This document shows positions 7,339-60,536 of a stretch of 64,000 bases of DNA, one piece after another. Made by a program: the position numbers and the translations under genes. Positions within the stretch are counted from its first letter, which is position 1; the number at the start of each line of letters is the position of its first letter. The notes under the pieces are model-generated. The model saw only the letters and a program-made list of their open reading frames with translations. It was not told where the DNA came from and made no database searches. This stretch comes from an uncultured Verrucomicrobiota bacterium (lineage in GTDB: Bacteria > Auribacterota > JABMQX01): positions 3,073 through 67,072 of the forward strand of contig CAZFAP010000004.1 in NCBI GenBank assembly GCA_964516325.1. The letters run 5' to 3'.

Positions 7339-9348
7339 ATGAGAACACAAAAGCGATGGAACATTGCTGCTTCGGGCCTTACGGTGTTGTTCGTCTCTGG
7401 CGTTTTTCTGACCGGAGACGCCAGCGAGTCCTACTTGTTTGTGAGAGCGTGGCCGCCCGTGGGTGACGCTTGGAGTTTCAGTGGGCCCTGCGCGGTGGCG
7501 GTGGACTCATCCGGAAGCGTCTTCGTAGTTGAGAGCTGGGGCGACAGAGTCAAAAAGCTCGACTCGTCGGGAAAGTGGCTTGCTGAGTGGGGTGGTCCAG
7601 GTGGCCCGGACGGAGAATTCGACGAACCCTCGAGCATCGCCGTGGATTCAGGAGGAAATGTGTATGTAGTTGACAGCGGCAACAACAGGATCCTGAAGTT
7701 TGACGGGGGCGGGAGGTTCATCCTGAAGTGGGGCAACGAGGGCGACGGAGACGGAGAGTTTGAGAATCCGCACGGCGTGGCGGTAGATTCATCCGGAAAC
7801 GTCTACATAGCCGATACGTATAACGACAGGATTCAAAAGTTCGACTCGTCCGGAAAGTTCTTAGCCGAGTGGGGCTCGGAAGGCTCCGGTGATGGGGAGT
7901 TCGCCAGTCCTTATGGCGTCGCCGTAGATTCATCCGGAAATGTCTATGTAGCCGATAGCTATAACAACAGAATTCAGAAGTTCGACTCGTTGGGAAACTT
8001 CTTAGGAAAGTGGGGCTCCTTAGGCGACGCCGACGGAGAGTTGGACAGTCCCCATGGCGTGGCCGCAGATTCATCCGGAAATGTTTATGTAGCCGATACC
8101 GTTAACGACAGGATTCAGAAGTTCGACTCATCGGGAAAGTTCTTGGCAAAGTGGGGCTCCTGCGGCAACGCCGACGGAGAGTTCGACAATCCGCAGGGCG
8201 TGGCCGTAGATTCGTCCGGAAACGTCTATGTAGCCGATACGTACAACGACAGGATTCAGAAGTTCGATACGCAGGGAAATTTCAGGGTGACCTGGAGCTA
8301 CACAGGTTACTCAGATGGTGAGTTCTCCTGGCCCACAGGCCTGGCCGTTGATCGCTCGGGAAGCATCTACATCGCAGACACTTGGAACAGCAGAATCCAG
8401 AAATTCGATTCCTGCGGCAAATTCACGGCTGCCTGGGGCTACTACGGCCGCGGCAACGGAGGGTTTGAGGACCCCGAGGGCATAGCGGTGGATTCATCCG
8501 GGAACGTCTATGTCGCAGATACCGGCAATCACAGGATCCAGAAGCTCGACTCCTCCGGCAGGTTTCTTGCCGCCTGGGGTTACCTGGGTTCGGATGACGG
8601 GGAGTTCTTCATGCCGAGCGGCATAGCCGTCAACCCTTGGGGAAACGTGCTTGTCGCAGATACGGGAAACGGCAGAATCCAGAAGTTCGACGCCTCGGGA
8701 AAATTCCTGCTGAAGTGGGACCTGGAAGGCGCGGCCGCTGGACGATACTCATACCAGCACGGCATAGCCATTGACTCATCGGGAAATGCCTACGTGCCGA
8801 CTTGGAGCTCGATTCAGAAATTCGATACATCCGGGAAGCTACTGTGCGAGTGGGGCACGGGCGGGAATGGCGACGGCCAACTCTCGGGGCCCTCAGGAAT
8901 AGCAATAGATTCATCTGGCAACCTCTTCGTCGTGGACACGTACAACAACAGGGTTCAGAAATTCGATCCTACAGGCAGGTTCATCACCAAATGGGGTTCT
9001 CTTGGGTCCGACGATGGAGAGTTCTATGAGCCGACCGGGATAGCTGTCGATTCGTCGGGAAATGTCTATGTCGCCGACACCCAGAACGACAGAATCCAGG
9101 TGTTCCAACGTGGTCCAAACATTCGGATCACGGGCTCGGCCGATTCTCCCCTCGTCGAATGGGATAGCGAAGGAGGCGGAAACTACAGGCTGTGGCTGTC
9201 CGCGGACCTTTTCGATTGGATAACGGCCGGTGGCATTCAGCCGGCCTCGCCGCTGGGCATCAACATGTGGATGGACGACGGCGTGCACACCCTCGGCCCG
9301 CCTCACAAGGCGGGACGCCGCTTCTACCGGGTCGAAATCCTGCAATAG
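7339..9348 (+). CDS. Secreted NHL-repeat beta-propeller protein (12 NHL repeats) with a C-terminal FN3-like RFYRV module
   Basis: RBS AAGGAGG 7 nt upstream of the ATG. Signal peptide [26 protein letters not shown]. Twelve ~47-aa repeats of the form [43 protein letters not shown]. C-terminus ...[22 protein letters not shown]...[12 protein letters not shown]. Confidence 0.85.
   Translation: [669 protein letters not shown]
7489..9110. repeat. Tandem ~141-bp coding repeats (NHL units) inside the NHL gene
   Basis: Twelve consecutive near-identical 47-codon units are visible at the DNA level, for example recurring gattcatccggaaa(c/t)gtctatgtagccgatac. Confidence 0.7.
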
Positions 9349-9350
9349 TT

Positions 9351-9378
9351 GCCCTCGGCGCCACACAGGATGGACACG
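9351..9378 (+). repeat. Conserved 28-mer GCCCTCGGCGCCACACAGGATGGACAGG, copy 1 of a motif also at 61834-61861 (inverted) and 63844-63870
   Basis: Starts 3 nt after the NHL stop codon. It is 27/28 identical to the reverse complement of 61834-61861 and ~24/27 identical to 63844-63870. Confidence 0.6.
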
Positions 9379-9584
9379 ATGTCAGATTAACCGCGGATGC
9401 ACGCAGATATACACTTTTCTATCTATCTGCGTTCATCGGCGTCCATCTGCGGTTCCTGATCATCGCGTGAATTCTGTTATCCCGTCGAGCTTCTTCTCTG
9501 CGCCCTCTGGGGTCTCGGCGGTGAAAAAGGGACGCGCCAGGGGCTGTTGAACCACAAAGCGGCTGCGGACGCGGGGTCTGGCCC

Positions 9585-10469
9585 CTACCCCTTATCGCAC
9601 TCGGCGAGGATTCGGAGAATGTCCTCCGTCGGCTTGGTCTTTCCGAACTCGCAGGCGACTATCCCGCGATAGCCCGACTCGAAGATGGCTTTGAAAACGT
9701 TCTTGTAGTTGATCTCGCCGGTTCCCGGCTCATGTCGTCCGGGGACGTCCGCGAAGTGGAAGTGCCCGATTTCTTTGATGTACCGTCGAATGTTGTTGAT
9801 GAGGTTCCCTTCGCTGATCTGCTGGTGATAAATGTCGAAGAGGCACTTGATGCACGGGCGCTCGGTCCGCTTGACCAGTTCCGATGCATCCTTGGAATAG
9901 ACGAGGAAATAGCCCGGATGGTCAACCAGGACGTTCAGGATTTCCCACACGAGCGTCATGCCAGCGTCCCCGACCATCGGAGCCACGAGCTGACCCGCTT
10001 TCACAAGAGCGTCCATCTGCTCTTCCTTTGACACGCCGTCTCGATTCCTGCCGGTCAACGCGAGGAGGATTTTCGTGCCGAGCATCCTGGCGTTCTCGAT
10101 GGCGCCTTTGACGCTATCCGCGAACCTCTGGTGCTGCGCCGGATCGTTTGGACCCCAGCCGCCGATGCTGCCGCCGGCGCCGATGGCGCCGATTTGCATC
10201 CCAAGCTCCTGGCATTTGGCTTTCACCTGCTCCTTATCATTCCATCCGCCGGCGCCAAGGTCCTCAAAAGCCCGAAAGCCATAGGCGGCTATCTGCTCGA
10301 TTCTCTCGACATGCGAACCGGTGAACCACCCCGGCGAGACGGCGATGGTGTTTCGCATGCCCGCGCCGATTTTCTCAACCTCCGCCCGAGCGCTTGATGA
10401 ATGAAAAACGCTCACCGTTGAAGCCACGGCAACTCCTCCAGCTGTCTTGAGAAACGTCCTTCTGTCCAT
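9585..10469 (-). CDS. TAT-exported sugar phosphate isomerase/epimerase (xylose-isomerase-like TIM barrel)
   Basis: RBS GGAGGT 7 nt upstream of an ATG giving MDRRTFLKTAGGVAVAS..., a twin-arginine signal. AP-endonuclease-2/xylose-isomerase-like fold motifs. The longer ORF to 10535 lacks an RBS. Confidence 0.7.
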   Translation of the reverse strand: MDRRTFLKTAGGVAVASTVSVFHSSSARAEVEKIGAGMRNTIAVSPGWFTGSHVERIEQIAAYGFRAFEDLGAGGWNDKEQVKAKCQELGMQIGAIGAGGSIGGWGPNDPAQHQRFADSVKGAIENARMLGTKILLALTGRNRDGVSKEEQMDALVKAGQLVAPMVGDAGMTLVWEILNVLVDHPGYFLVYSKDASELVKRTERPCIKCLFDIYHQQISEGNLINNIRRYIKEIGHFHFADVPGRHEPGTGEINYKNVFKAIFESGYRGIVACEFGKTKPTEDILRILAECDKG

Positions 10470-10594
10470 AAGATAACCTCCAATGCGAGAATTTCTGTTT
10501 GCCGACCAGAACCTTGAGACGCCTGACCCTACCACACACCGGTCGCGCGGTCAAGCCCAGCATTTGCCGGAGTGGAAGGGCTCCCTTTGCGGAG

Positions 10595-10660
10595 GGAGCC
10601 ACCGCAGAGAACGCAGAGGATAGATAGTTGTGGCACCCCGCCTCTGGCGGGACCCGTGAA
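10595..10660 (+). repeat. ~65-bp direct repeat, copy A; copy B is at 13282-13355
   Basis: CACCGCAGAGAACGCAGAGGA...GGCACCCCGCCTCTGGCGGGACCCGTG versus CACCGCGGAGAGCGCAGAGGA...GGCATGCCGCCTTTGGCGGGACCCGTG. The two copies bracket the C45/hydrolase gene. Confidence 0.5.
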
Positions 10661-10923
10661 TGGTCTCCCCACCATAAGCAACATGCCCATGCCACAACGA
10701 GAGCCAACGGGAGCGTGGAGTGCAACAAGTTCCCCCCTTTCGGTCTTTCGGTCCGCCGCACCCCGACCACGGGTGGAGCAGACCATAGCTACACCGCCAA
10801 AATGTAGCCACGCTGTTCGCAGGCCATTGCGGGCATCAGAGTGTGGTAGAATGGGAATTGAAGGGCCCTCCACAGCGCCCTGGCCCCTTTCAGCACCCGT
10901 AACACCAAAAGGATATCCCTGTT

Positions 10924-13176
10924 ATGAAAAACTCACTCGCAACCTCACGCCTCGCAAACAAATCGAGGACCGCCCATTTCTGGCGTGTCGCCTCCATTAT
11001 CCTGCTCCTCGCGCTATTCATTGTCGTGCCGGTCTCGTCGCACCCGGAGCAACCCTCGGACTGGCAGACGGTCGGACAGGAAGGGCAAGGAAAACTTCTT
11101 TCGACCAGAGGGCAGAGAGTTCTGGTTCTCAAAGGGACGCCCTACGAAATTGGCTTTCAGCACGGGAAACTGCTCGCCAAGGAAGCGGCGCAGGATGCGA
11201 AGGCGTACCTCGACGATTGGGCTATTGGGAAACGCGGGGAGTCCAGATCGTCGCTCTCGAAGATATTCGAGTCCCTGCGACCGTTTATCCCCGAGCGATA
11301 CATGGAAGAGATGAAAGGGCTCGCCGACGGCTCCGGCGTACCCCTGGAAGAAATTCATCTCCTTCACGCGATTCCGACCCGCTTCCACTGCACGGGAGCC
11401 GCTGCGTTTGGCAAAGCGACCGCCGACGGGTACCTTTATCACACCCGCAGCCTCGATTACAGCCTCGACGTGGGCAGCCAGAAGACAGCCCAGGAGAATG
11501 CGGCGCTGATTGTCTTTCAGCCCGAGGAAGGGAACGCTCACGCGGTGCTGTCCTGGGCGGGGCTTATCGGCTGCGTCTCCGGGATGAACGCAAAAGGGAT
11601 TTCCATCGGCGAGATCGGGAATGCGTGCCGCGACGAAAGCTACTCAGGGATGCCGATGATTTTCATGCTGAGGGAAGCGCTCCGAACGTGCGAGAGCCTC
11701 GACGAGGTCATCAACTTCATCGGCAAAGCCCCCCGGACGTGTGGCTTCACGTTCGTCGTTGGGGACGGCAAGATTCCCTCCGCGTCTGCGCTGGAGGTCT
11801 CCCATTCGCGGATGGCTGTGGGGCGACCGGGCGATCCAAAAAGCGACCCTCCTCCCCACTCCCCGATCACGGACGCTGTCCGTCGCGGAAACTATTTCGT
11901 TGATAGGGAAATGGCTGCCGTTCAAAGAGACGAGTACGACCCCCGAATTTCGGCTCCGGAGCATTGGCTCGGGTATTCAGTGATGAGCGGGTTTCTCGTC
12001 GAGAACCTCGGACGGCTCAACGACATCAAGATGATTGAGCTCCTGCGAAAGTACCCGCCGGAGCACCCCTGCCTCCACCAGGCGGTCTTTTGTCCTTCGA
12101 CGCTCGAGTTGTGGGTGTCCAACGCGGTCTCGCCCGCCAAAGCGAAATTCGCCGGCGCCCAGAACCAACCCTTCTATAAGTACAACCTCGCAAAATTGAT
12201 CGAGGGTATTCCATTTGAAGTCATCGTCGCCGAGCCACCTGCACGCTCCACCGGCGTCTTGCCGCGCCCGGAGACGGGGACGACGACCATCTCCGAAAAG
12301 GAGGAATTCATTTCGGACGGCTCGCTCTCACCGTTCCGCCTCAAAAAGAAAAACTTCGATTGGGTTCTGACGTACGATTCCGCGACCGACAAGTATTTCG
12401 TCGCTGACCTTTCCTTCCCGTCAGAAGTCGAGACCCCGTGGCTTGAAGTCAATACGGTTCTTGCCGAATATTACCTCCCGAGAAGCACAGAGAAGATGCC
12501 CGGCGTCATCGTCCTTGACATCCTCGAAGGGAATTTCGTCGTAGCCCGGACCCTCGCCCGAACGCTCGCGGACAACGGCATTGCGGCTCTTCCGCTGCAT
12601 CTCCCCTTTTTCGGAAAACGCAGGCCAAGGAACGGTCCCGAGGAAGCCATGATTTCGGGAGAGATTGATTTGACATGCCGCTTGATGACACAAGCTGTCC
12701 TCGATATCCGGTGTGCCGCGCAGTGGCTCAGAACGCGCAAAGAGATTGACGCGGGAAAGACCGGCATAGTCGGGGTGAGCCTCGGGGCGATTACGGGCGC
12801 CCTCGCGATCGGCGTGGACGGCGGCTTCACGAAAAACGCCCTCGTCTTGGGCGGCGGAGACATAGCGCAGATCGTCTGGACGTCGCCCGAAACCGTCAAA
12901 GTGAGGGAACAGCTAATCGAAAAGGGCTACACGCTCGAAAAGCTGCGCGAGGAGCTGCGCCCGGTTGACCCCCTCACGTACGCTCACCGCATCAAGCCCT
13001 CCACCGTGATGATGTTCAACGCGAAAAACGACCAGACCGTCCTCCCCGATTGCACGACGAAGCTGTGGCAGAAAGCCGGACAACCGAAAATCGTGTGGTA
13101 CAACACCTCCCACGTCGGCGCGGCGATGTACATGAACAAAATCCTCGAGGAGATCATCGCCTTTGTCCGGGAATGA
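10924..13176 (+). CDS. Fusion protein: C45-family (acyl-CoA:6-APA acyltransferase-like) Ntn peptidase domain plus a C-terminal alpha/beta-hydrolase domain
   Basis: N-terminal signal anchor. C45-like region with the probable nucleophile in FHCTGAAAFG. C-terminal GxSxG (GVSLGAITG) and a dienelactone-hydrolase-like tail with a His in NTSHVG. Confidence 0.65.
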   Translation: MKNSLATSRLANKSRTAHFWRVASIILLLALFIVVPVSSHPEQPSDWQTVGQEGQGKLLSTRGQRVLVLKGTPYEIGFQHGKLLAKEAAQDAKAYLDDWAIGKRGESRSSLSKIFESLRPFIPERYMEEMKGLADGSGVPLEEIHLLHAIPTRFHCTGAAAFGKATADGYLYHTRSLDYSLDVGSQKTAQENAALIVFQPEEGNAHAVLSWAGLIGCVSGMNAKGISIGEIGNACRDESYSGMPMIFMLREALRTCESLDEVINFIGKAPRTCGFTFVVGDGKIPSASALEVSHSRMAVGRPGDPKSDPPPHSPITDAVRRGNYFVDREMAAVQRDEYDPRISAPEHWLGYSVMSGFLVENLGRLNDIKMIELLRKYPPEHPCLHQAVFCPSTLELWVSNAVSPAKAKFAGAQNQPFYKYNLAKLIEGIPFEVIVAEPPARSTGVLPRPETGTTTISEKEEFISDGSLSPFRLKKKNFDWVLTYDSATDKYFVADLSFPSEVETPWLEVNTVLAEYYLPRSTEKMPGVIVLDILEGNFVVARTLARTLADNGIAALPLHLPFFGKRRPRNGPEEAMISGEIDLTCRLMTQAVLDIRCAAQWLRTRKEIDAGKTGIVGVSLGAITGALAIGVDGGFTKNALVLGGGDIAQIVWTSPETVKVREQLIEKGYTLEKLREELRPVDPLTYAHRIKPSTVMMFNAKNDQTVLPDCTTKLWQKAGQPKIVWYNTSHVGAAMYMNKILEEIIAFVRE

Positions 13177-13281
13177 CAGCGAAGTTCTCGGCGCGGAACT
13201 GCGTTTGGGTCCCTGAAGCGGCAGGGCGCTGGCGCCCACAGAGCTGGGGTCACCGCAAGCGTCGGTAATCGCTCAGCTACG

Positions 13282-13355
13282 TGGGGACTCACCGCGGAGA
13301 GCGCAGAGGACGCCCCCCGAAGGCGGGGTGGCATGCCGCCTTTGGCGGGACCCGT
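13282..13355 (+). repeat. ~65-bp direct repeat, copy B (see 10595-10660)
   Basis: Sequence identity to copy A as described for that feature. Confidence 0.5.
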
Positions 13356-13581
13356 GTCCCGAGGGCACACCTCCAACCGCCTGGGGCGACGAAACCCACG
13401 GTCCTGTCAATCCCGTACATCCTGTTCATCCTGTCCAACTTTCCCCCTTCCCGGCGTTCCTCGCGACCCCTGTGGGTCAATACCAACAACCCGACCACCC
13501 GTAAGTGAGGCGCTACATCAAATGCAGGAAATCTTATCCTCCGCCGGAGACTGAGGCCTTACGCCGAATAAGACTTTTCTC

Positions 13582-13611
13582 TTGACAGACAAAGTCCACT
13601 ATTATTATTCT
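13582..13611 (+). promoter_or_regulatory. Putative promoter in an AT-rich island upstream of the first multihaem cytochrome gene
   Basis: TTGACA (13582-13587), an 18-nt spacer, then TATTCT. It lies in the only strongly AT-rich stretch nearby (ctattattattctcattatcaaaatagg). That would give a ~200-nt leader to the ATG at 13820. Confidence 0.3.
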
Positions 13612-13819
13612 CATTATCAAAATAGGAATGATATCTCGGTTTGCTGACCGAATCCCACTCGCGGGAGCTTCAGAGATGGCGTCGCCAGGATTGCCACTTC
13701 GTCTGAGGCGCCTATGCGGGTCCGTCCCTACCACACAGGCTGGAGGCGGTGAAAGACGCGGAAATGGATTTGGTCGGGAACTGAGGGAAGTCAGTGCCCG
13801 GCTCACCCGGGAGGTAAAG

Positions 13820-15937
13820 ATGAGAAGGCGGCTGATTGTTGGTTGCGTCATCCTATGCGGCTCGCTTGTGTCCGTTCGGGACGTTAGTGGGACGGCGCCA
13901 GCGTGGCTGGCTTGCGAGAACTGCCACCGGGAAGGGGCGATGCTCGAGACGCTGAAGCACCACAAGCTGAGCAGCTCAGACCTAACGCTGAGGGAGGCTC
14001 TGGACGAATGCGTGGGATGCCACGAGCCGGGGCTCCAAAAGGGGGAGAAGTCCTTTTCCTACAGGGTCCATCGGATCAGTGGGCACAGCATCTACGAAAA
14101 GGCCTGCGCCGTATGCCACGCGAATTCGGAAGGGAACGATTATCCGATGGCATGGGACTGCGGGACCTGCCACGCCACACACAAGAACGGCGAGGCTTTT
14201 CCGAGCAATCAACCGTGCATGGACTGCCACGACGGAAGTCAGGCGGCGACTGCCGACGCTGCTCACGAGATTCCTCCAACGGAATACCAGACATCGGGGC
14301 TGTGCAAGGACTGCCATCGCACCGACTACGACAAGTGGAGAAATTCGTCCCACAGCCGGATCATCCGAGAGGTCGGCGACCCGAAGTACACGGGCACAAA
14401 GTTTGGGGTTCTGGGGACCTGGGCCGACGGGACCTGGTCGCAGTTTTCGTTGAGCGATCCGAACGCCGGGATTCCCCCGGTTACCGTGTACACAAAGGCG
14501 GAGGGGGGGGTGTACAAGTTGAAGCTTGGCGACCCGGTGACAGGGCCCGAATATACGGTGGCGCGGACCCTCGGGGGAGGAAACGCGTGGAAGCAGCACT
14601 TTCTGACGAAGATAGGTTTAAGTCACTACATTCTTCCGATGCGGTGGGTTGAAGCGAAAAATGTGTGGGCCGCATACGGACTGAAAGACTGGTTTGACAC
14701 GGCGGGGAATCCAAGAACCCCGGCGAAGGGGCGCTCGTATGAGCGAAGGTGCGCCGGCTGCCATTTCACGACATCGTCCTCCGTTGCCTATAACGAGACG
14801 AGCCAGGAGTATTTTCTGACTTTCGGGGAGTCAAACGTGGGTTGTGAGAGGTGCCACCGTCCCGCGGGCGGGCATCTCAATGCCGGCGGCGGGCCCGGAG
14901 TGGGAACGATCAATCCAGCGACTTTCCCGGACAAGTTGCAGCGAGGAGAGTTGTGCGGGCAGTGTCACTCCCGCGGTTCGAGCGTCTATGTCAACGCGAG
15001 CGACGGGTTATCCCGAGACTACCCGTGGGCCGCAGCGACCCTCGAGCACCCACAAGGAAGAGGGTATCAGCCGGGAGAGAGCCTCTGGAACCTCTATAAT
15101 CTCATTTCACCGCCGGACCCCGACCTATGGGGAGACACCCCTCCCACCTCGAAGGGGCATCGCCAGGAGTGGCTGGACTTCCAGAATAGCCCCCACTACG
15201 AGCCGGCGAGCATGGCCTGCTGGGACTGCCACGACTCCATGGGTTCGACCATTCCGCATGAGTTGAAGTGGCAGAACGACAATAACGAACTTTGTTTGCA
15301 TTGCCACGGGACGGGTGAGGGAGGCTCGGCGTCGTCCCAGTTTGCCAAACCTTATGACGTCGAAGTCCCCAAGCACACGCGCCACGCCTACAACCCGGCA
15401 AACAATAACCCGCCCGACCCCGATGGGTACGGTCAGAGCCGATGCACCAGGTGTCACATGCCGAAAGTCGCCATATCGGCTGCGCCTTATGACGTTCATG
15501 CTCACACGTTTGAGACCCTGGTTCCCGCCAGCACTCTCGAATTGGCGATGCCGAGCTCCTGCGCCGTGAGCTGCCACCGCAAATATGCCAATGCGGCGCC
15601 CGGACGTCCGGGGTACGGCGACTACTCTTTGTCTGATTGGACTGAGGAGACCGACAGGAAGCTGGCGGCCTATCTCTCGAAGTTCGAGGAGGCGTGGTTC
15701 GAGGGGAAGGCGCACGTCCTGGAGGTGGTTTATTCCGCTAATTTTGTCACGTTCACATGGGTCTCCGAAGAGGGGAAGACGTACGTGGTTTACCGGGCTG
15801 ATGGACTGGGAGCCTCGGCGACGTGGAATCTCCTGGCGGAGGTCCTCGGCAAAGCCGGAAGCAGAACCTCGTCTTTCACGGACACCGACATCATCGGTCC
15901 CAGTTCCCGATTTTACCGAGTTCTCGGTGTGGAGTGA
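13820..15937 (+). CDS. Secreted multihaem c-type cytochrome with 12 CxxCH motifs and 1 Cx3CH, and a C-terminal FN3-like RFYRV module
   Basis: RBS GGGAGGT 5 nt before an ATG giving the signal peptide MRRRLIVGCVILCGSLVSV. Haem motifs: CENCH, CVGCH, CAVCH, CGTCH, CMDCH, CKDCH, CAGCH, CERCH, CGQCH, CWDCH, CLHCH, CTRCH and CAVSCH. C-terminus ...FTWVSEEGKTYVVYRADGLGASATW...SSRFYRVLGVE. Confidence 0.85.
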   Translation: MRRRLIVGCVILCGSLVSVRDVSGTAPAWLACENCHREGAMLETLKHHKLSSSDLTLREALDECVGCHEPGLQKGEKSFSYRVHRISGHSIYEKACAVCHANSEGNDYPMAWDCGTCHATHKNGEAFPSNQPCMDCHDGSQAATADAAHEIPPTEYQTSGLCKDCHRTDYDKWRNSSHSRIIREVGDPKYTGTKFGVLGTWADGTWSQFSLSDPNAGIPPVTVYTKAEGGVYKLKLGDPVTGPEYTVARTLGGGNAWKQHFLTKIGLSHYILPMRWVEAKNVWAAYGLKDWFDTAGNPRTPAKGRSYERRCAGCHFTTSSSVAYNETSQEYFLTFGESNVGCERCHRPAGGHLNAGGGPGVGTINPATFPDKLQRGELCGQCHSRGSSVYVNASDGLSRDYPWAAATLEHPQGRGYQPGESLWNLYNLISPPDPDLWGDTPPTSKGHRQEWLDFQNSPHYEPASMACWDCHDSMGSTIPHELKWQNDNNELCLHCHGTGEGGSASSQFAKPYDVEVPKHTRHAYNPANNNPPDPDGYGQSRCTRCHMPKVAISAAPYDVHAHTFETLVPASTLELAMPSSCAVSCHRKYANAAPGRPGYGDYSLSDWTEETDRKLAAYLSKFEEAWFEGKAHVLEVVYSANFVTFTWVSEEGKTYVVYRADGLGASATWNLLAEVLGKAGSRTSSFTDTDIIGPSSRFYRVLGVE

Positions 15938-16135
15938 TTCTCTGAAGACTCTGCCGTCGGCGTGAACCGCGGATGTAGCTGGCCACGGGGCAATGAGCCG
16001 CCGAATTCAGCGGATGGAACCGCGGAATCCGGATGCTCGGTTTTCATTGCTTGGAGAGAATAAGTCGGCTGTCCATGGGCCTTTTGTTCGGGTGGCGCTG
16101 TTTCTGAAGAGGCGGGAGGAAGGAGGAAACCGTAC

Positions 16136-19100
16136 TTGCGTAACAGGCTTGGGACACGGAGGATAGGAGGAAGATTCGTGAAATCGGACAGGCATACGTT
16201 GGCCGGGCGCCTGGCGCTGCGGGCAATAGGTTCTCTCTGGCTCGCTTTCGTTCCGGGCGTGCTCACTGCTCAATCGCAGGGAATCGAATTGCTTTCCGAG
16301 CTCTCGCCTCCCTTGAACGGACAGTATTACGTGGGAGGGGAAAACGTCACTCTGACGGTCCGCGCCAGGGACGGCGGGGGTGTTGAATTCACGAACACGG
16401 ACGACATTGCGCTCCTTACCTACTATGTCAGCGGTCCGCGGCAGGATTATCGCGGCGTGATTCGTGACCAGAAGCTTATATCCGGGTTGGATTCGGGAGT
16501 CTCCTATCCCGCAGCGGGATCGTTTTCAATCCCCGAGTCGCCCCGGCCGGGCTCCTACTCAATGCTCATCCGACTGGTCACAAGAGCCGGGGAGGAGGGA
16601 TATAGCCTCAAGCACTTCAAGGTCGGTCAAGTTCAGAGCACGGTTCCGGGGTCGCTCCCCCCTCAGGGATGGATGGGATGCGAGAAGTGCCACGAAAACG
16701 GCAACATCGGCCACTACCGTCCGAAAGGCCTGGCGCTGACCGGGTCCATCGAGTATTGCCTCGTCTGTCACGCGTGGGAAACCGAGAAGCCTTTCGGCCC
16801 CACGATGCACGTCCTCCAAGAACACGACAGTCTGAAGATATTCCGGGACTACCCGAATTCGTGCGCGGTATGCCACACCGGCTCCGAAGGGAATGACTTC
16901 ATAAGCAAGGCCGCCTGTCGGTCGTGCCATCCGAATGTCGGTCCCACGGGGCACTTCGGGTTCGATTGGCCGGACAATACCTGCACCTTCTGCCACAACG
17001 ACGTCTTCGCCGCGAAGCCGGACACCATTCACAGGATCGAGCCGGGAAATTATGTAACCTCGGAGACTTGCGCGAATTGCCATGCGGACCAGTACCAGCG
17101 CTGGGACAAGACGGCTCACGCCCACGCCCTGAAACCGACTGACTCGACCTTCCGGGGAGGCGTTATTGGCAACTTCTCGCAGAGTCCCGTTTTGAGCGAC
17201 CCCGCCAACAACGTTCCGCCAGTGACGGTTTACCTTTCCAGGGAGGGAGCTACACACAGGGCGACCCTCGGCGCGGGGGGACCGACGTACCCGGTGGACC
17301 GCGTCGAGGGAGGAGGGAGCGGATGGAAGCAGCGATACCAGACCAGGATCGGCAACAGCTATTACACGCTCCCCATCCAATGGAACGAGAAAGAGGGAAA
17401 GTGGGCAGCGTTCGAGCTGCACAAGTGGTTTGACGCGCAGGGAAAGGCGAAGACTCCCGACAAGTCCGATTCCTTTGAGAGGAGATGGCTGGGCCGCTAT
17501 GCCACGAACCTACAAGTGTCCTTCGACAGCGTAACCCGCGAGTACATGGGGACGCATTCCGAACTAAACATCGGGTGCGAGGGCTGCCACGGTCCCGCCA
17601 GCGGCCATATCAACGCTGGAGGCGGCTCGGAAGGAGTCGTCAACCCGCGGGACTTTGCTCGAGACCGGGCGGGGGAAGTTTGCGGGCAATGCCATTCACG
17701 AGGAGAAAGCACTTACGTCAATTCGACCGGTGACGGGAAGCGGAGGGAATATCCCTGGTCGCCGCAGGACAAGGGCTTCCGCCCCGGAGACATCCTTTCT
17801 AATTTGTTCACCTTTACGACCTCTTTTCTGCACTTCTGGCCGGACGGCACGGCGAAATCCGAGAACCAACAGCACATGGACTATATCCACAGCGTGATGT
17901 ACTCCGCGCCTGGGGAGAAAGTGACGTGCTTCAGTTGTCACGACTCGCATGGTTCGCCGAACAACTACGACCTGGTCGCCTCGACAAGAAGGGACGGAGT
18001 CGAGATCGCCACGAAAAATGAAGACAACACCCTGTGCCTCTCCTGCCATGCAGGAAGAGGCGATTTCGCCGAGATCACGAAAGAGATGGTGGCCAATGCG
18101 GCGCGGAACCTGGCGGCGATCGGTGCGGTTGTGTCAAAGCACACGGCTCACGAGCTCTACTTCCCCATGGGAGAGGGCTTCACGGCGGTGGGGCGTTGCT
18201 CCCGCTGCCACATGCCGAAAGTAGCGACGTCCGCCGTGCCCTACGACATCCACTCACATACGTTCCGGGTCATCGAGCCGGACAGGACTCTCACCCACTC
18301 GATGCCCAGTTCGTGTGCGGCGAGCTGCCACAGGGATATTTCGAACCTCGTTCCGACGGCGCCAGGGTCCGGCGATAGGACGCTGACAAATTGGGGCGAG
18401 CCTACGGATGTGGACCTCGCGAAATTCCTCAAGGGATTTCATCACCAATGGTACGAATACGGTCCGCTCCTTCCCGAAGTTGCAGACAGCGATGGAGACG
18501 GCATGCCGGATGACTGGGAAACGGCGCATGGACTTCTGCCCGCATTTGCGGGGGACGGCTCCGCCGACCCGGACGGCGATACCTACACGAATCTGCGGGA
18601 ATATCTCGGAAGCAGCGATCCTCAAGACGCCGACTCGAAGCCCTACTCCGCCAAGGTTGAGGTCCTTTCCGTGGCGCCGCGGCTGAACGAAAAAGACGCC
18701 CAGGGAAATAGGATCGTCACCAGCGGGTTGAGCAATGTGCCGGTGGGCACGTATGTGAGGTTATCCGGCAGCGGCGCGGACTGGGAGGGGAAGGCTGTTC
18801 CGAGCTACTCGTGGACGGTGGTGGGCCCTCCGGATTCCCTATCGGCTCTCGATAACCCTTCTGCCGAGACGGTCAACTTTGCCCCGGATAGAGAAGGGCA
18901 GTATCGGGTCGAGCTACGGGTGGGAGACGCGGCGCCGACAGATTCCCCGACGGCGGTGCAAATCATCACGGTGGGCACGTGGTTGGGGAAGGAAAACTGC
19001 CAGGTCTGCCACAGCGGGCGCTACGCGGAAAGGCCCGGCTGGGAACTGGCCGACTTGTACACACCCTGGACGGAGACCCACCACGGGACCGCTTTCACGC

Positions 19101-20695
19101 GGAAGATCAGCGGGCTGAGCTCCTTCAAGGACAGTTGCGTCTATTGCCACGTGGTCGGGGACGACCGGGCGCCCGCTGCGGTCAACAACGGCTGGGACGA
19201 TTGGACCAAAGCGTTGGGATGGACCTTCCCCACGACGATCGAGCCAGCCAACTGGAGCGCCATCCAGAAGAAATACCCGCAACTGGAAAACATGGCAAAC
19301 ATCCAGTGCGAAAACTGCCATGGGCCGGGCAGCGAGCACCGCGCGGGAAAGGGCGTCATCGGCGTCAGCCTGAAGTCCGGCATCTGCGGACAGTGTCACG
19401 ATTCGCCAACCCATCACATCAAGAATTACCAGTGGGATACCTCCGCCCATGCCCACGCCTTGCAGGCGGCCGGCGGTTTTCCTTCCCGAAGCGCCAGTTG
19501 CCTGAAGTGCATGACAGCGGAAGGGTTCGTGGACGTTTTCGTGAAACAGAAGCCGACGGAGGTCATCGAGGACCCCAGTCCCGTCGGCTGCGCGACATGC
19601 CACGACCCACATACCGACGCGTTTGAGCACCATTTCCGCTTCTACGGCCTCGTGCAATTGCCCAACGGCACGAAGCTCAACGCCGGAAGGGGGGCAACAT
19701 GCTTTAAGTGCCACACGAATGACGGGGCATACCCCGGTCATCAGGCACGGCACGATCAGGCGGAGATGTTCAGCGGGACAGGAGGAGCGGAGTTCCCCGG
19801 AGTCCGATACATGTCCAGCCGCCATGCGATGCTCATCCCGGACACGTGCGTTCGCTGCCACATGTTTGAGACTCCGCCAGAGGGCGAGCCGGGACGTTTC
19901 CTCGTCGGGGAACACACGTATAAAGTGGCGTATGATAACAACACTCCGGACGACCCGGCGGACGACGTTTACAACGTGCGCGCGTGCGCTCCGTGCCATA
20001 CGGGACTGACGAACTTCAACATCAACGGAACCCAGGACCACATCACAGCCCTCACCGGTGAGCTCGAAGCATTGCTCCCAAAAGAGAACGGCAAAATCCT
20101 CTATGAGTCCACCCCCACCCGGACGCTGACCGAGGCGGAGAAGGACGCCGCGTTCAACTACTCCTTCGTTGCGGCGGACCGGAGCCAGGGGGTTCACAAT
20201 GCGCTCTACGCAAAGCAGTTGCTCTGGGATTCCATTACGGCGCTGGACGCCGACCACGACGCATCGCGAGATGAAGTGGACGCCGACGCGGATAGCGACG
20301 GCGTCGCGAACGCGGCGGACGCCCTCCCCCTGGACACGGACAATGATGGACAGCCCAACCTCATTGACCCGGACGACGACAACGATAGCGTTTCCGATTT
20401 GGAGGAATATGCCGCGAAGGGGGACTTCTTGAGCTTCTTCCCCTACTTCGTAGTGAAAGAAATGACGACCGACACCGACGGAAACGTGGTCGTTCGCTGG
20501 CAGTCTGTCCCCGGCAAGACGTACAGCATACAGTACGCCAATGTGGGAGGGACGACTCTGGAGTGGCACGTCGCCGAGCCGAGCTTCCCCGCCGCGGCAG
20601 GGAACGAAACCGCCTGGACCGACGATGGGACGAAAGCGAATCCGCCGTTGCCTGCGGTCCGCGGGAGATTCTACAGAATCCTCGTGAACCAATGA
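16136..20695 (+). CDS. Secreted giant multihaem c-type cytochrome (~1500 aa) with 19 CxxCH motifs and 1 Cx3CH, Asp-rich Ca-binding linkers and a C-terminal FN3-like RFYRI module
   Basis: A TTG at 16136 (RBS AGGAGG 9 nt upstream) or a GTG at 16178 (RBS TAGGAGG) could be the start. The central ~450-aa module is paralogous to the upstream cytochrome. An extra 8-haem C-terminal region is present. Thrombospondin-type-3-like DxDxDG stretches (DSDGDGMPDDWE; DADSDGVANAADALPLDTDNDGQPNLIDPDDDND). Ends ...RWQSVPGKTYSIQYANVGGTTLEW...RGRFYRILVNQ. Confidence 0.85.
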   Translation: MRNRLGTRRIGGRFVKSDRHTLAGRLALRAIGSLWLAFVPGVLTAQSQGIELLSELSPPLNGQYYVGGENVTLTVRARDGGGVEFTNTDDIALLTYYVSGPRQDYRGVIRDQKLISGLDSGVSYPAAGSFSIPESPRPGSYSMLIRLVTRAGEEGYSLKHFKVGQVQSTVPGSLPPQGWMGCEKCHENGNIGHYRPKGLALTGSIEYCLVCHAWETEKPFGPTMHVLQEHDSLKIFRDYPNSCAVCHTGSEGNDFISKAACRSCHPNVGPTGHFGFDWPDNTCTFCHNDVFAAKPDTIHRIEPGNYVTSETCANCHADQYQRWDKTAHAHALKPTDSTFRGGVIGNFSQSPVLSDPANNVPPVTVYLSREGATHRATLGAGGPTYPVDRVEGGGSGWKQRYQTRIGNSYYTLPIQWNEKEGKWAAFELHKWFDAQGKAKTPDKSDSFERRWLGRYATNLQVSFDSVTREYMGTHSELNIGCEGCHGPASGHINAGGGSEGVVNPRDFARDRAGEVCGQCHSRGESTYVNSTGDGKRREYPWSPQDKGFRPGDILSNLFTFTTSFLHFWPDGTAKSENQQHMDYIHSVMYSAPGEKVTCFSCHDSHGSPNNYDLVASTRRDGVEIATKNEDNTLCLSCHAGRGDFAEITKEMVANAARNLAAIGAVVSKHTAHELYFPMGEGFTAVGRCSRCHMPKVATSAVPYDIHSHTFRVIEPDRTLTHSMPSSCAASCHRDISNLVPTAPGSGDRTLTNWGEPTDVDLAKFLKGFHHQWYEYGPLLPEVADSDGDGMPDDWETAHGLLPAFAGDGSADPDGDTYTNLREYLGSSDPQDADSKPYSAKVEVLSVAPRLNEKDAQGNRIVTSGLSNVPVGTYVRLSGSGADWEGKAVPSYSWTVVGPPDSLSALDNPSAETVNFAPDREGQYRVELRVGDAAPTDSPTAVQIITVGTWLGKENCQVCHSGRYAERPGWELADLYTPWTETHHGTAFTRKISGLSSFKDSCVYCHVVGDDRAPAAVNNGWDDWTKALGWTFPTTIEPANWSAIQKKYPQLENMANIQCENCHGPGSEHRAGKGVIGVSLKSGICGQCHDSPTHHIKNYQWDTSAHAHALQAAGGFPSRSASCLKCMTAEGFVDVFVKQKPTEVIEDPSPVGCATCHDPHTDAFEHHFRFYGLVQLPNGTKLNAGRGATCFKCHTNDGAYPGHQARHDQAEMFSGTGGAEFPGVRYMSSRHAMLIPDTCVRCHMFETPPEGEPGRFLVGEHTYKVAYDNNTPDDPADDVYNVRACAPCHTGLTNFNINGTQDHITALTGELEALLPKENGKILYESTPTRTLTEAEKDAAFNYSFVAADRSQGVHNALYAKQLLWDSITALDADHDASRDEVDADADSDGVANAADALPLDTDNDGQPNLIDPDDDNDSVSDLEEYAAKGDFLSFFPYFVVKEMTTDTDGNVVVRWQSVPGKTYSIQYANVGGTTLEWHVAEPSFPAAAGNETAWTDDGTKANPPLPAVRGRFYRILVNQ

Positions 20696-20898
20696 GTCAT
20701 GGGGTCGGCGGGCCTACAAGTCAGAGAGTTCGGGTGTAGGGCGGATGCAGCCCGGGCACGACCGGCAGCACGGGTCTCACGGCTGCTCAAAGCCGATTGG
20801 AGCGACGGGAGTGTTTGTCAGGTCAGACAAGGCGGCTCCCGGAGTCTGAGCCGCGGTTGGGTCTGCTTGATGCTTGCGTGGAGAGGGAGGATGAGTGA

Positions 20899-22251
20899 TT
20901 GTCGCGCGGCGCTCGGCCCGAGGAGCTTGAAAGGGGCTGGCAATCAATCGAAACTGTAAAAAGGGCTCAACCCACACTCCTGGTTCTGCTCATTTTGTGG
21001 CGGGTCTTCTTGCCGGATTCCGGAAATGCAGAGGGTCCCGAGGAGCAGCGCCGCCCCCACCTCTCCGGTGAGGTCTCTACCAGATACCGCACGCAATGGA
21101 ATGCGGACGATACCGACCATAATTTCCTGCAGTACCTCAACTTTGACCTCAAGAACCTTCTGACGCCAAAACTTTCTCTTCACGGCTTTCTGCGCGCCGG
21201 CGAGGACCTTGACGACTCGGACCCGATTTTCGACTGGACGAACTACGACGTTCAGGACCGCATTTACGACCTGTATCTGGAGGGCGAGGGCGTCATCCCG
21301 TATTCTTCTTTTCGCGCAGGACGCCAGTATTACGATGGCCTGGAGGGAGTCCAGTTTGACGGGCTGCGATTCTTTCGGGACGAGGGGAGATGGTTGAAAT
21401 GGGGAGCCATCGGAGGAAGGTACGTGAGCTTTTATGACCGAGACCTTCAGCGAGATTCCATGGTCGCGGGCGCCCACGCGACAGCGTCCTTTCTCCGGGG
21501 CGCCTCTTTCTCGACTGAATACCTCCGGCTCATGGGCTTTCCAACAGGGGATGACGACTACCTCGGTTTCGCATTTCAGCAGCGCTTGGAACGGCTCAGC
21601 TCTCTCACGCGGTATTCGGTCCTGAACGGTGAATCCAGAGACGTCTCCACCCGTGTTTTCTGGGTTGTGGGGAGCGGCTGGGAGGTCTCCGCCAAGTACT
21701 TTCGTCTTCTTCACTCCATTGAAGAACTCTCGAACGAATTCGACCCGTATTACCCTCTTTTTGGCGCTTACATGGGATTCCACCAGTACGATGTGGACGT
21801 GACGAAGCATGTCGGCGACCGGTTCTCCGTCTCGGGCGGATATGCCGCCCGGAGACTGGTTGGGGAGGAGGTGGAGAGCGTGGCCAATAGGGAGTTCGAC
21901 AGGTACTACGCATCATTCTCGGCACGGGACGTGCCGACACGGGATTTTGGGGTCTTCGCGACGATCGAGCGGTGGCTCGCGAGCGACGGCGAGGAGAACT
22001 ACAGCGCCGGCGGGGAAGTCAGCTACAGGTTAAAACGCAAGCTGGATGTGGCGGTGGGGACGTATTACTCGAAGTACAAATACGACATAGACACGATCAC
22101 GGAAAAAACGGATGTCCGGAGCGTGTACGCGAGAGTGAAGTATCACTTCAATCCGAAAGCCTACCTTTCCGTGAAAGCGGAGAGGGAAGACGATGACTCG
22201 CCGGAATCTCCTTACGGCAGGGCTGAGATAAGGATGACCTACAGGTTTTGA
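20899..22251 (+). CDS. Putative outer-membrane beta-barrel (porin-like) protein
   Basis: TTG start with RBS GGGAGGA. N-terminal signal-like hydrophobic stretch. Alternating aromatic/hydrophobic beta-strand pattern throughout. Terminal Phe (…RAEIRMTYRF). Only 36 bp upstream of the next cytochrome gene. Confidence 0.55.
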   Translation: MSRGARPEELERGWQSIETVKRAQPTLLVLLILWRVFLPDSGNAEGPEEQRRPHLSGEVSTRYRTQWNADDTDHNFLQYLNFDLKNLLTPKLSLHGFLRAGEDLDDSDPIFDWTNYDVQDRIYDLYLEGEGVIPYSSFRAGRQYYDGLEGVQFDGLRFFRDEGRWLKWGAIGGRYVSFYDRDLQRDSMVAGAHATASFLRGASFSTEYLRLMGFPTGDDDYLGFAFQQRLERLSSLTRYSVLNGESRDVSTRVFWVVGSGWEVSAKYFRLLHSIEELSNEFDPYYPLFGAYMGFHQYDVDVTKHVGDRFSVSGGYAARRLVGEEVESVANREFDRYYASFSARDVPTRDFGVFATIERWLASDGEENYSAGGEVSYRLKRKLDVAVGTYYSKYKYDIDTITEKTDVRSVYARVKYHFNPKAYLSVKAEREDDDSPESPYGRAEIRMTYRF

Positions 22252-22287
22252 AAGGCAGAACTCATTTGCCGGAACGACGGCCAACCT

Positions 22288-23424: not shown

Positions 23425-23675
23425 GGGGCAGCAGAGCATGGGACACCTCTGCCTGCTGCTCTTTGGCGGAGGGAAAAGAGGAATGCGCTGTCTGCTGCCC
23501 GGGCACAAGGAAAGGAAGAAGAGAAATCACCGGGAAAAGCGAACCGGGCAACAGAGGGAGTTTCGCCCTTGGATTCGCGATGAAGAAAGGAAGAACCAAA
23601 GGGAGTTCGTGGCTGTCCCTGAAGTGCCCAGTACGCGAGTTCTTACACCCAGTAACGTGTTAGAGCGCACGGACC

Positions 23676-23787
23676 TTTTTTTGACGGGATAACCCCGCCT
23701 AAGGCGGGGTCAGGGCAGGACCAGACTAATCCGGGTCATCCTGTAATCTTGTCCAGAAAAACACGTGATTGAACTTGTCCACCGCAG
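23676..23787. repeat. Composite intergenic repeat element, copy 1 (TTTTTGACGGGAT, a CCCCGCC-N-AAGGCGGGG hairpin, GGGTCATCCTGTAA and TTGAACTT modules)
   Basis: Shares ordered sequence modules with 47397-47545 and 60537-60668. Confidence 0.5.
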
Positions 23788-23873
23788 AAATAACCCGCAA
23801 CCCTCAAGGGAACTGACGAAGTCCGCAGGTGGAACAGTCCGGCAGGGGGCGGGCGACAACGGGAGTGTAAGTC

Positions 23874-54176: not shown

Positions 54177-54216
54177 CACGTGTTTTCGGACACGATTACA
54201 GGATAATCCGGATTCG
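54173..54216 (+). repeat. ~45-bp direct repeat, copy 1; copy 2 is at 54829-54875
   Basis: TCCATCACGTGTTTTCGGACACGATTACAGGATAATCCGGATTC versus TCAATCACGTGTTTCTCGACAGGATTTACAGGATGAACCGGATTC. The two copies bracket a ~610-bp non-coding stretch. Confidence 0.45.
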
Positions 54217-60251: not shown

Positions 60252-60536
60252 AACCGCCGCTCCGGGAACGGCCTCCAGGCGCCCCCCTCTCGCAGAGCCA
60301 GCCCGGAGCTTCACCTCCTTGGCCGTTAACAATTCCCCTCAACTTCTGAAACGCTCCTAACCTGCCGCCGGTTCCGTCGGTTGCGCATGAATACACCAGC
60401 CCCCCGGCGGCGCCCTCAGCGCACGAGTTCATGAATTCGGTGGCGTATCAAACCTCATGAACTTGTCTCGTCGAGGAGATTGCCGCGGGTTCGGGCAGGC
60501 GCGATGTCGTCCAGAAGGAAGAAAGGAGATGCGACC

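Follow-up and report, generated by a model that had tools for sequence, protein, structure and literature searches.

A homologous module of about 72 residues closes three otherwise unrelated exported proteins encoded on the + strand of the window (the whole 64,000-nucleotide stretch analyzed here): an NHL propeller and two multihaem cytochromes with 13 and 20 haem motifs. All three tails represent a single autonomous domain that belongs to the FN3 superfamily. They are members of a very large and apparently undescribed family whose distribution centers on the Verrucomicrobiota and other members of the PVC group; in this family the domain is overwhelmingly the last of an exported multidomain protein, either as a single copy or as a C-terminal tandem array. 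We suggest that the tail is a folded, non-covalent docking module that provides surface retention and/or a handle for outer-membrane translocation, a reading to which we assign a probability of roughly 45%.

The three tails and their fold

When the C-terminal ends of the three proteins (Table 1) are compared, the homology that the first-pass annotation had claimed is borne out: the peptides quoted there lie at the ends of the ORFs, and copies A and C each match copy D by BLASTP, with pairwise identities among the tails of 27-32%. The end coordinates given for them coincide with the stop codons of the carriers (9348, 15937 and 20695), whereas the starts are out of frame. The haem counts of 13, 20 and 16 proposed for the cytochromes agree with the motif counts. 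In all three tailed proteins the stop follows exactly four residues past RFYR[VI], the final residues being EILQ, LGVE and LVNQ, respectively. When the start with the best ribosome-binding site is taken for each, all three have a signal-peptide-like N-terminus; carrier A begins with an ATG preceded by AGGAGG, and the start of carrier D is uncertain (16136 or 16178). The three carrier genes lie within 12 kb of one another.

Table 1. Tail copies, their carriers and the tail-less neighbors, in window positions
Feature	Position	Strand	Basis
Tail copy A, FN3-like C-terminal domain of the NHL-propeller protein	9121..9345	+	HMM envelope; BLASTP vs tail D E = 4e-7
Carrier A, secreted NHL-repeat double propeller	7339..9348	+	Pfam NHL E = 5e-107; NCBIfam ScyF-like NHL E = 9e-139
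Tail copy C, short-loop variant (...SSFTDTDIIGPSSRFYRVLGVE), 13-haem cytochrome	15713..15934	+	HMM envelope; BLASTP vs tail D E = 1e-6
Carrier C, multihaem c-type cytochrome, signal peptide MRRRLIVGCVILCGSL	13820..15937	+	12 CxxCH + 1 CxxxCH
Tail copy D (...AWTDDGTKANPPLPAVRGRFYRILVNQ), 20-haem cytochrome; copy used for the structure model	20450..20692	+	HMM envelope
Carrier D, giant multihaem cytochrome	16178..20695	+	19 CxxCH + 1 CxxxCH; MtrC/MtrF-like domains; TSP3-like and PKD modules
Tail-less neighbor, putative outer-membrane porin, ends ...IRMTYRF	20899..22251	+	No Pfam match; homologues in metagenome loci
Tail-less neighbor, 16-haem cytochrome, presumed periplasmic partner	22288..23424	+	16 haem motifs

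A search of the six-frame translation of the window with an HMM built from the three tails returned no fourth copy (next best match E = 0.49), in agreement with the earlier statement that the A2M, the secreted glycoside hydrolases and the 16-haem cytochrome lack the tail. The only other FYR[VIL] string in the window, in the ORF at 51567-54233 on the - strand, is an isolated chance match.

The model of copy D is a beta-sandwich that can be superposed on solved FN3 domains, and DSSP assigns it six strands in place of the canonical seven (A, B, C, C', E, F and G). The resemblance to FN3 that had been noted from the sequence is therefore supported at the level of the fold and not by a sequence match: PF00041 (fn3) is silent on the three window tails (E <= 10) and on the tail regions of 10 homologues, and it does detect other domains within two homologues that carry tails (P0018 and P0034). 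An FN3 domain as described by PF00041 has about 90 residues and seven strands, whereas the tail has about 72 residues, six predicted strands and a strong C-terminal bias. Among its conserved residues (W, Y, W, [WF]TD and RFYR[VIL]) are the Trp of strand B and the Tyr of strand C, together with the last strand, formed by RFYR[VIL], beyond which the tails end after 3-4 residues. The tails are all-beta, with no transmembrane segment, hydrophobic helix or basic cluster. As RFYRV is retained in 128 of 149 internal tandem copies, we regard this motif as the last beta-strand of the fold, a structural element and not a terminal signal; and because the conserved residues are mostly of the fold core and are kept in internal copies, their conservation alone does not demand a binding partner. 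The terminal Pro found in 125 of 183 tails was likewise rejected as a terminal signal: Pro-rich linkers usually follow internal tandem copies and Pro often occupies the equivalent position there, so that it most likely marks the domain boundary. A basic, LPS-binding character was also considered and rejected (median pI 5.4, mean net charge -1.2).

Size, distribution and position of the family

The tail is not limited to the three window proteins. A profile search matched 11,177 protein clusters (counted at 50% identity) at E <= 1e-3 and 713 at E <= 1e-10. For each window tail, relatives in other genomes are nearer (41-58% identity) than the paralogues in the window (27%), and the tail is not a product of recent domain shuffling; the nearest outside tails to copy A sit on other NHL proteins (52-58%), and the best outside relatives of copy C share 41% identity with it. 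Among the matches listed for a degenerate DNA pattern, which recognizes the WTDDG subtype only, the genomes are almost all Verrucomicrobiota, with a single member each of the Kiritimatiellae and Lentisphaerae.

No Pfam or NCBIfam model matched the three tails even at E <= 10. This result takes in the models that had been proposed for comparison, among others: TIGR04183 and PF18962 (T9SS type A CTD), TIGR04131 (gliding-motility-associated, type B CTD), and PEP-CTERM and other sorting-signal models gave no match on the tails at this threshold, like PF00041 above, and the choice-of-anchor models gave none on the three window proteins. PPC (PF04151) had no HMM match on the tails, none of the tail regions of 10 homologues was covered by Pfam or NCBIfam, and a literature search found no description of the domain. 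A CBM32 motif and a clostridial Fn3-like module resemble the tail weakly in sequence (E about 0.01).

The tail had been described as always sitting at the extreme C-terminus, and this survives as a strong bias. A tail copy lies within 8 aa of the protein end in 141 of the 159 best family members (56 of the 58 with a single copy and 85 of the 101 with several), the best-150 member list being biased toward multi-copy proteins. Among the matches listed for the DNA pattern, which is blind to position, a stop lies 3-11 codons past FYR in 95 of the 101 that reach a stop in frame. The same holds within single genomes: copies are C-terminal in 15/16 and 11/11 cases in two MAGs, and at least 16 carrier ORFs were found within 77 kb sampled from one MAG. 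The word "always" does not stand, as tandem, internal and N-terminal copies exist. Many relatives have 2-10 tandem copies arranged as C-terminal arrays; a rare internal copy occurs in L014 (in the order NHL, tail, peptidase C25, AbfB), and rare N-terminal copies in L042 and L067 (signal peptide, tail, hydrolase). A free C-terminus is therefore not obligatory.

Passengers and genomic context

The tail is found on many unrelated exported proteins, in keeping with what had been proposed from the three in the window. The 56 carriers contained 45 Pfam families, with phosphoesterases, beta-helix proteins, subtilases, metallophosphatases, GH31, GH2 and NHL among them, and no family was common to more than 10 carriers, although many of the roughly 100 carriers collected are orthologues drawn from a few passenger families. 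A signal-peptide heuristic was positive for 41/55 carrier ORFs compared with 92/330 other ORFs. Such a wide passenger range is typical of a tag.

The position of the tail relative to one of its passenger domains is also informative. In seven of nine relatives of the RFYRxLENP subtype, a large subfamily, the choice-of-anchor Q domain (NF041518) ends 3-10 residues ahead of the tail, and an eighth has the domain too; the choice-of-anchor Q segment used as a homologue query gave a single match. The name "choice-of-anchor" refers to domains of surface proteins that bear alternative C-terminal anchors (bioRxiv 10.1101/2023.03.06.531300), and it is directly after choice-of-anchor Q that known sorting tags are placed. 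In other lineages, T9SS CTDs (PF18962) are found on homologues of the carrier A NHL propeller (P0168, P0173, P0176, P0206 and P0230); these are among the few with such CTDs in the best 120 homologues of the NHL body, none of which has the tail or a PEP-CTERM motif.

The co-occurring transporter, sortase-like or exosortase-like gene that the first-pass annotation had proposed to look for was not seen near carriers at about 100 loci. Neither tblastn of the window proteins against 111 loci nor all-vs-all ORF clustering gave a recurrent transporter, sortase-like or other machinery gene; the only recurring neighbors were antisense shadow ORFs and DUF1559/prepilin-like genes (6 loci), the latter being common in genomes of this kind in any case. 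Upstream of the tail domain we noticed no conserved cleavage motif or linker.

Immediately downstream of the tailed cytochromes lie a putative porin and a 16-haem cytochrome. The gene order of tailed 13-haem cytochrome, tailed 20-haem cytochrome, 450-aa protein ending in an aromatic residue and 16-haem cytochrome is kept in two metagenome loci (L116 and L117), and in metagenome loci homologues of the putative porin (58-67% identity) are flanked by a tailed large cytochrome on one side and a 16-haem cytochrome on the other; an AF2 single-sequence model of the putative porin, at a pLDDT of 30, did not confirm a barrel fold. The 16-haem cytochrome was without a tail in every orthologous cluster examined. 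By sequence identity, the tail of the large cytochrome is as conserved across these clusters as the body of the protein (71-75% against 72%). The layout, with a putative porin and presumed periplasmic and extracellular multihaem cytochromes, resembles that of verrucomicrobial porin-multihaem-cytochrome clusters with an extracellular cytochrome (PMC5615132), although the periplasmic partner there has 8 haems compared with 16 in the window.

Possible roles of the tail

We infer that the tail has a docking, retention or export-recognition function. It would keep extracellular proteins on the cell surface; alternatively or additionally, it would give folded periplasmic cargo a common handle for recognition ahead of translocation across the outer membrane, for example by the type II secretion system. 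In the window, the tail would keep both large extracellular multihaem cytochromes beside the porin/16-haem conduit encoded immediately downstream, a placement at the putative conduit that would allow electrons to leave the cell, and it would tether the NHL propeller as well. More speculatively, the six-strand tail, if it is an FN3 fold without its G strand, might be completed by a donor strand from a receptor.

Several known systems resemble the tail in part. Dockerins of cellulosomal enzymes are likewise mostly C-terminal modules of ~70 aa that are found on many exoenzymes and are occasionally internal, and the similar occasional internal placement of the tail fits a docking role; cohesin-domain matches were found in 3 of 56 carriers. 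The dockerin fold is unrelated, being a Ca-binding helical duplicated loop-helix. PPC (PF04151) and C-terminal PKD extensions are small C-terminal beta-sandwiches on secreted hydrolases, and the hydrolases so extended cross the outer membrane folded. PPC differs in that it is typically removed after secretion and occurs mainly on proteases of Proteobacteria and archaea, whereas the range of cargo of the tail is far broader. Tripartite signals (PEP-CTERM/exosortase, LPXTG/sortase, GlyGly-CTERM and MYXO-CTERM) are also C-terminal, present in multiple copies per genome, borne by unrelated passengers and placed after choice-of-anchor domains; their defining criteria have been set out (bioRxiv 10.1101/2023.06.07.544157). 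They are short, each made up of a motif, a transmembrane helix and an Arg cluster, whereas the tail forms an all-beta globular domain with neither a hydrophobic helix nor a basic cluster, from which it appears not to be a cleaved sorting signal of this kind. The earlier reading of the tail as a sorting, anchoring or secretion signal is accordingly upheld in part: C-terminal bias, diverse exported cargo and the choice-of-anchor Q slot speak for it, and neither the exosortase-type design nor neighboring machinery was found.

The tail might instead be an ordinary structural, spacer or substrate-binding module, comparable to the FN3, PKD or CBM-like modules found in numerous exoenzymes and adhesins of bacteria and with no role in sorting or anchoring, its C-terminal bias reflecting how the lineage appends new domains. 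We consider this somewhat unlikely. It would account for the FN3 fold, for the arrays of 2-10 copies and the internal copies that retain RFYRV, for the occasional internal or N-terminal copy, and for the lack of machinery found near carriers; it is also consistent with the weak resemblance to CBM32 and clostridial Fn3-like modules and with the observation that the profile also catches, with low scores per domain, arrays of classical FN3 type (P0031, P0032 and P0056). It does not readily explain why about 90% of members end precisely at the domain boundary, and we know of no such positional constraint on generic FN3, PKD or Big domains. Nor does it explain why the tail fills the slot directly behind choice-of-anchor Q or why, of the cytochromes in porin-cytochrome clusters, the presumed extracellular one has the tail and the periplasmic one does not, and the passenger range is very wide for a single binding specificity.

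A bolder proposal, which we think doubtful, is that the tail tags cargo for an undescribed surface-sorting or outer-membrane translocation route in Verrucomicrobiota and the PVC group. It would then correspond in function to the T9SS CTD and might be the recognizable handle for type II secretion that has long been sought in this phylum. A related reading, which we regard as quite improbable, is that the tail is a dedicated secretion signal of an undescribed pathway, equivalent in function to the T9SS CTD: it would be recognized by a translocon and then cleaved, and the cargo would be attached covalently to a surface glycolipid. There are parallels: the type A CTD of Bacteroidota (TIGR04183 / PF18962 Por_Secre_tail) is also a folded C-terminal beta-sandwich, of about 70-100 aa, found on unrelated Sec-exported cargo in many copies per genome; NHL propellers, including homologues of carrier A, bear either the tail or a T9SS CTD in different phyla; and the tail follows choice-of-anchor Q. 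A single copy at the extreme C-terminus, as in type A CTDs, is found in the window proteins and most relatives, whereas the tandem and the rare internal or N-terminal copies would not be expected to persist if the tail were purely a signal. The silence of TIGR04183/PF18962 and TIGR04131 on the tails argues against a dedicated signal of this type, as does the fact that neither a conserved upstream cleavage motif or linker nor candidate machinery near carriers was noticed. Finally, the idea that the resemblance arose by chance or by recent local domain shuffling among the three genes alone, which their spacing (within 12 kb of one another) and low pairwise identity might suggest, is refuted by the pairwise E-values (1e-6 to 4e-7), the thousands of family members, the much closer relatives of each window tail in other genomes and the metagenome orthologues that keep the tail.

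Verrucomicrobiota abound in soils, lakes, oceans and guts and degrade polymers, and to our knowledge essentially nothing is known of how they display or release their exoenzymes. At minimum, the tail family is large and easily recognized, yet neither Pfam nor NCBIfam includes it, and this gap in annotation merits closing. If the tail is a retention or export tag, one model would predict the surface and secreted proteome of the phylum, and the tail would offer a handle for finding its receptor or translocon through phylogenetic profiling; if it is a cargo tag, a single HMM would predict the entire surface exoproteome of these mostly uncultured bacteria, including phosphatases, proteases, glycosidases and the cytochromes of extracellular electron transfer. 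A retention or export tag would also suggest how the extracellular multihaem cytochromes of verrucomicrobial porin-cytochrome clusters remain on the cell with no lipoprotein anchor.

A common C-terminal module without a family model

The NHL propeller, the 13-haem cytochrome and the 20-haem cytochrome of the window (carriers A, C and D) end in a common homologous module of ~72 residues, as the first-pass annotation had observed. Pairwise BLASTP comparison of the tails gives E = 4e-7 (A vs D) and 1e-6 (C vs D), and W, S, G, Y, W, D, P and RFYR are invariant across the three in the alignment. The peptide strings in that annotation are all correct and the ORFs end at stop codons; the start coordinates that it gave for the tails are out of frame. 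All three carriers have signal-peptide-like N-termini when, for each, the start with the strongest ribosome-binding site is chosen. No fourth tail was found when an HMM of the three tails was run against the six-frame translation of the window, and the only other FYR[VIL] there (GRFYRIKVKP, in a Wzy_C/TPR protein) is a chance match and not a tail domain. In carrier D, TSP3-like calcium-binding repeats and a PKD/K319L-like domain separate the haem blocks (residues ~780-945), and a TSP3-like DPDDDND...LEEY motif lies just upstream of the tail; many relatives (P0008-P0012, P0014) likewise have D-x-D-x-DG...E[FY]..GT.P directly N-terminal to the tail. The gene content of the window is typical of PVC bacteria, and its G+C content is 58.6%.

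No family in Pfam-A or NCBIfam 20.0 matches the tails even at E <= 10, including fn3, Por_Secre_tail/TIGR04183, TIGR04131, PEP-CTERM, PPC and the choice-of-anchor models, several of which had been put forward for comparison. Annotation of the full-length carriers by Pfam and NCBIfam is confined to the passenger parts, and in 10 homologues no model covers the tail, though PF00041 matches domains elsewhere in two of these proteins. Against PDB sequences, a profile search returned only marginal matches, to a CBM32 glucanase (E = 0.0085) and, at E = 0.017, to a clostridial Fn3-like protein, and literature searches found no published description of the domain. The label "FN3-like" is right at the level of fold. 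The tail is short, with six predicted strands vs seven; judging from the B-strand W, the C-strand Y.[IV].Y and the FYRV of the last strand, the missing strand is probably G. The tail domain is a real and very large branch of the FN3 superfamily that is apparently uncatalogued.

Features of the window and of the retrieved genome or metagenome loci (L-numbers; P-numbers are tail-bearing relatives)
Feature	Source	Position	Strand	Remarks
Carrier A, NHL propeller	window	7111/7339-9348	+	tail ends ...[11 protein letters not shown]
Xylose-isomerase-like TIM barrel	window	9585-10535		TAT signal
750-aa membrane-anchored protein	window	10924-13176	+	peptidase C45/acyltransferase (AAT) and ABHD18-like alpha/beta hydrolase
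Carrier C, 13-haem cytochrome	window	13628/13820-15937	+	12 CxxCH, 1 CxxxCH; tail ends ...SSRFYRVLGVE
Porin-cytochrome-like cluster	window	13820-23424		13820-25690 with regulators
Carrier D, 20-haem cytochrome	window	16136/16178-20695	+	19 CxxCH, 1 CxxxCH; tail ends ...RGRFYRILVNQ
TSP3-like repeats and PKD/K319L-like domain	window	18470-18960		within carrier D
Putative porin, 450 aa	window	20899-22251		no Pfam match; aromatic C-terminus ...IRMTYRF
GFO/IDH/MocA oxidoreductase	window	26839-28191
3-keto-disaccharide hydrolase (DUF1080)	window	34916-36256
Wzy_C/TPR protein, 871 aa	window	51564-54179	-	O-antigen-ligase-like membrane domain, long TPR region
DUF1559 prepilin-like	window	59538-60332
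Non-terminal tail	L014	3529-7215	+	NHL propeller, tail, peptidase C25, AbfB x2
Non-terminal tail	L042	2051-3172	+	signal peptide, tail, alpha/beta hydrolase
Non-terminal tail	L067	7089-8000	-	signal peptide, tail, alpha/beta hydrolase
P0004, 100-aa gene call	L112	9085-10303		one NHL blade and complete tail
Choice-of-anchor Q 3-10 residues before tail	P0079, P0087, P0091, P0103, P0117, P0120, P0128			RFYRxLENP subtype

Distribution, position and passengers

Restriction to the three window proteins through recent domain shuffling had been named as a possibility. Searching 1.84 billion 50%-identity clusters with a profile of 18 tails gives 11,177 representatives at E <= 1e-3 and 713 at E <= 1e-10. 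Identity to tails elsewhere is 52-58% for A, 54% for D and 41% for C, vs only 27% among the three; the window tails are closer to outside relatives than to each other, and a recent local shuffle is therefore ruled out. On these sequence comparisons we take the window subtypes to be ancient. A degenerate DNA pattern for WTDDG...R-FYR, which demands no stop codon, matched at least 111 loci with one genome taken per species. Of the 111 matches listed, ~98 are genuine tails: ~75 lie in MAGs labelled Verrucomicrobiota (Verrucomicrobiae, Chthoniobacterales/Spartobacteria, Opitutus, Limisphaerales, Akkermansiaceae, Haloferula, Luteolibacter), ~19 in unclassified "bacterium" MAGs, one each in Kiritimatiellae and Lentisphaerae, and two on short contigs placed, probably in error, in Bifidobacterium and Armatimonadetes bins. 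Matches in Enterobacter, Enterococcus, Cyanobacteria and similar genomes are out of frame or without the tail domain. The closest of those listed to the window organism is the MAG JAUYEE01, with a neighbouring oxidoreductase at 84% amino acid identity (L056), and the Verrucomicrobiota MAG CAYZXL01 has the RFYRxLENP and NHL tail subtypes in common with the window organism.

The proposal that the tail always sits at the extreme C-terminus holds as a strong bias and not as a rule. Among the matches listed, a stop follows FYR by 3-11 codons, most commonly 4 or 5, in 95 of the 101 in-frame matches that reach one, and in sampled loci of five MAGs, one with at least 16 carriers within 77 kb, 39 of 41 copies end at the stop. 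In the best 159 of the 11,177 profile matches, a copy ends <=8 residues from the C-terminus in 56/58 single-copy and 85/101 multi-copy proteins; 3-4 residues follow FYR[VILT] in 148 of 183 terminal tails, and 125 of these 183 end in Pro. Many relatives have 2-10 tandem tails at the C-terminus, and three genuine non-terminal tails were found. Near-full-length internal copies among the best matches retain xFYR[VILT] (128/149, vs 125/133 terminal copies) and are usually followed by a Pro-rich linker; the motif is therefore the last strand and boundary of the domain. The short P0004 call, preceded by a 200-aa gene of no known family on a contig otherwise encoding hydrogenase and housekeeping genes, may derive from an NHL carrier that was degraded or split.

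The passengers are a set typical of exoenzymes and adhesins. In the 56 complete carrier ORFs there are 45 Pfam families, none common to more than 10 of the ORFs: Phosphoesterase (10), Beta_helix (7), TSP3_bac (7), NHL (3), Peptidase_S8 (3), Metallophos/purple acid phosphatase (3), Cohesin (3), GH31 (2) and GH2 (2), plus PQQ propellers and others. The Cohesin domains (PF00963) raise the question of cohesin/dockerin-like assemblies in these Verrucomicrobiota. The suggested enrichment on exported proteins is borne out by a crude heuristic, which calls signal peptides in 41 of 55 carriers vs 92 of 330 other long ORFs. The C-terminal bias of the tail on exported Verrucomicrobiota/PVC proteins is striking.

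The porin-cytochrome-like cluster

Two large tailed cytochromes, a putative porin and a 16-haem cytochrome form a porin-cytochrome-like cluster, followed by a histidine kinase and a response regulator. Homologues of the putative porin gene were retrieved in seven metagenome loci, and in L114-L119 a like gene order recurs, with porin homologues 58-67% identical to the window protein. L117 has a tailed 20-haem cytochrome, the putative porin and a tail-less 16-haem cytochrome, in that order, as does L116, where the large tailed cytochrome has 8 CxxCH in the 834 aa read; in L118 a tailed non-haem protein lies beside the porin/16-haem pair. Between orthologous large cytochromes the tail is 71-75% identical vs 72% for the remainder, which supports the view that it is kept under selection. 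Multihaem cytochromes mature in the periplasm and must therefore cross the outer membrane folded, and extracellular ones must remain at the surface to be useful; as inspection of the tailed cytochromes C and D revealed no convincing lipobox, this would speak for a module of retention or of recognition in translocation. In Verrucomicrobia, gene clusters that pair a novel porin with a periplasmic multihaem cytochrome, sometimes with an extracellular one as well, have been linked to extracellular electron transfer (PMC5615132); the window cluster resembles these in layout, but its partner cytochrome has 16 haems rather than 8.

Readings of tail function

We favour, at a probability of roughly 0.45, a folded docking, retention or export-recognition module on exported proteins. 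Passenger diversity, export, the anchor slot, possible tag swapping, selection and ancient subtypes favour such a tag-like tail. The anchor slot is seen in RFYRxLENP, a large subfamily (490-2390 aa) ending ...SWTDDGSLTGxPPxLxPRRFYRxLENP: choice-of-anchor Q (NF041518), which caps the end of a right-handed beta-helix, is found by NCBIfam in eight of nine relatives, ends 3-10 residues before the tail in seven, and gives one of the nine its NCBI name, "choice-of-anchor Q domain-containing protein". Choice-of-anchor domains belong to surface proteins with alternative C-terminal anchors, namely LPXTG, PEP-CTERM and T9SS (bioRxiv 10.1101/2023.03.06.531300). NHL propellers homologous to carrier A have T9SS CTDs in other lineages, and carrier A itself scores above the cut-off of the NCBIfam ScyF NHL PEP-CTERM family, which fits the idea that different lineages tag the same passenger differently.

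An ordinary FN3 module, serving as a spacer or in binding, is the main rival and seems less likely to us: the fold and the internal copies sit comfortably with it, and the terminal bias and passenger diversity sit better with a tag. A cleaved secretion signal like the T9SS CTD, as found on carrier A homologues, is improbable, with TIGR04183 silent on the tails. The earlier reading as a sorting, anchoring or secretion signal is partly supported: export and unrelated passengers hold, strict terminal placement does not. Signals of the PEP-CTERM type are defined by a tripartite design (bioRxiv 10.1101/2023.06.07.544157), which the tail fails, having neither a hydrophobic helix nor a basic cluster.

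The first-pass annotation also suggested looking for a co-occurring transporter or sortase-like gene. A tblastn search of the 111 listed loci with each protein of the window and all-vs-all clustering of locus ORFs gave no recurrent non-carrier neighbour; only antisense shadow ORFs and DUF1559/prepilin-like genes recur (6 of these loci and the window), the latter being very numerous in PVC genomes. As cargo genes are scattered, such absence is expected and favours no hypothesis. The 750-aa C45/ABHD18-like protein is encoded downstream of the tailed NHL gene and ahead of both tailed cytochromes; it was set aside as a sorting-enzyme candidate, since none of the 111 loci has a homologue of it close to a carrier.

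The tail domain is of interest for how large a gap in annotation it exposes, and because its proposed connection with surface display and extracellular electron transfer can be tested.
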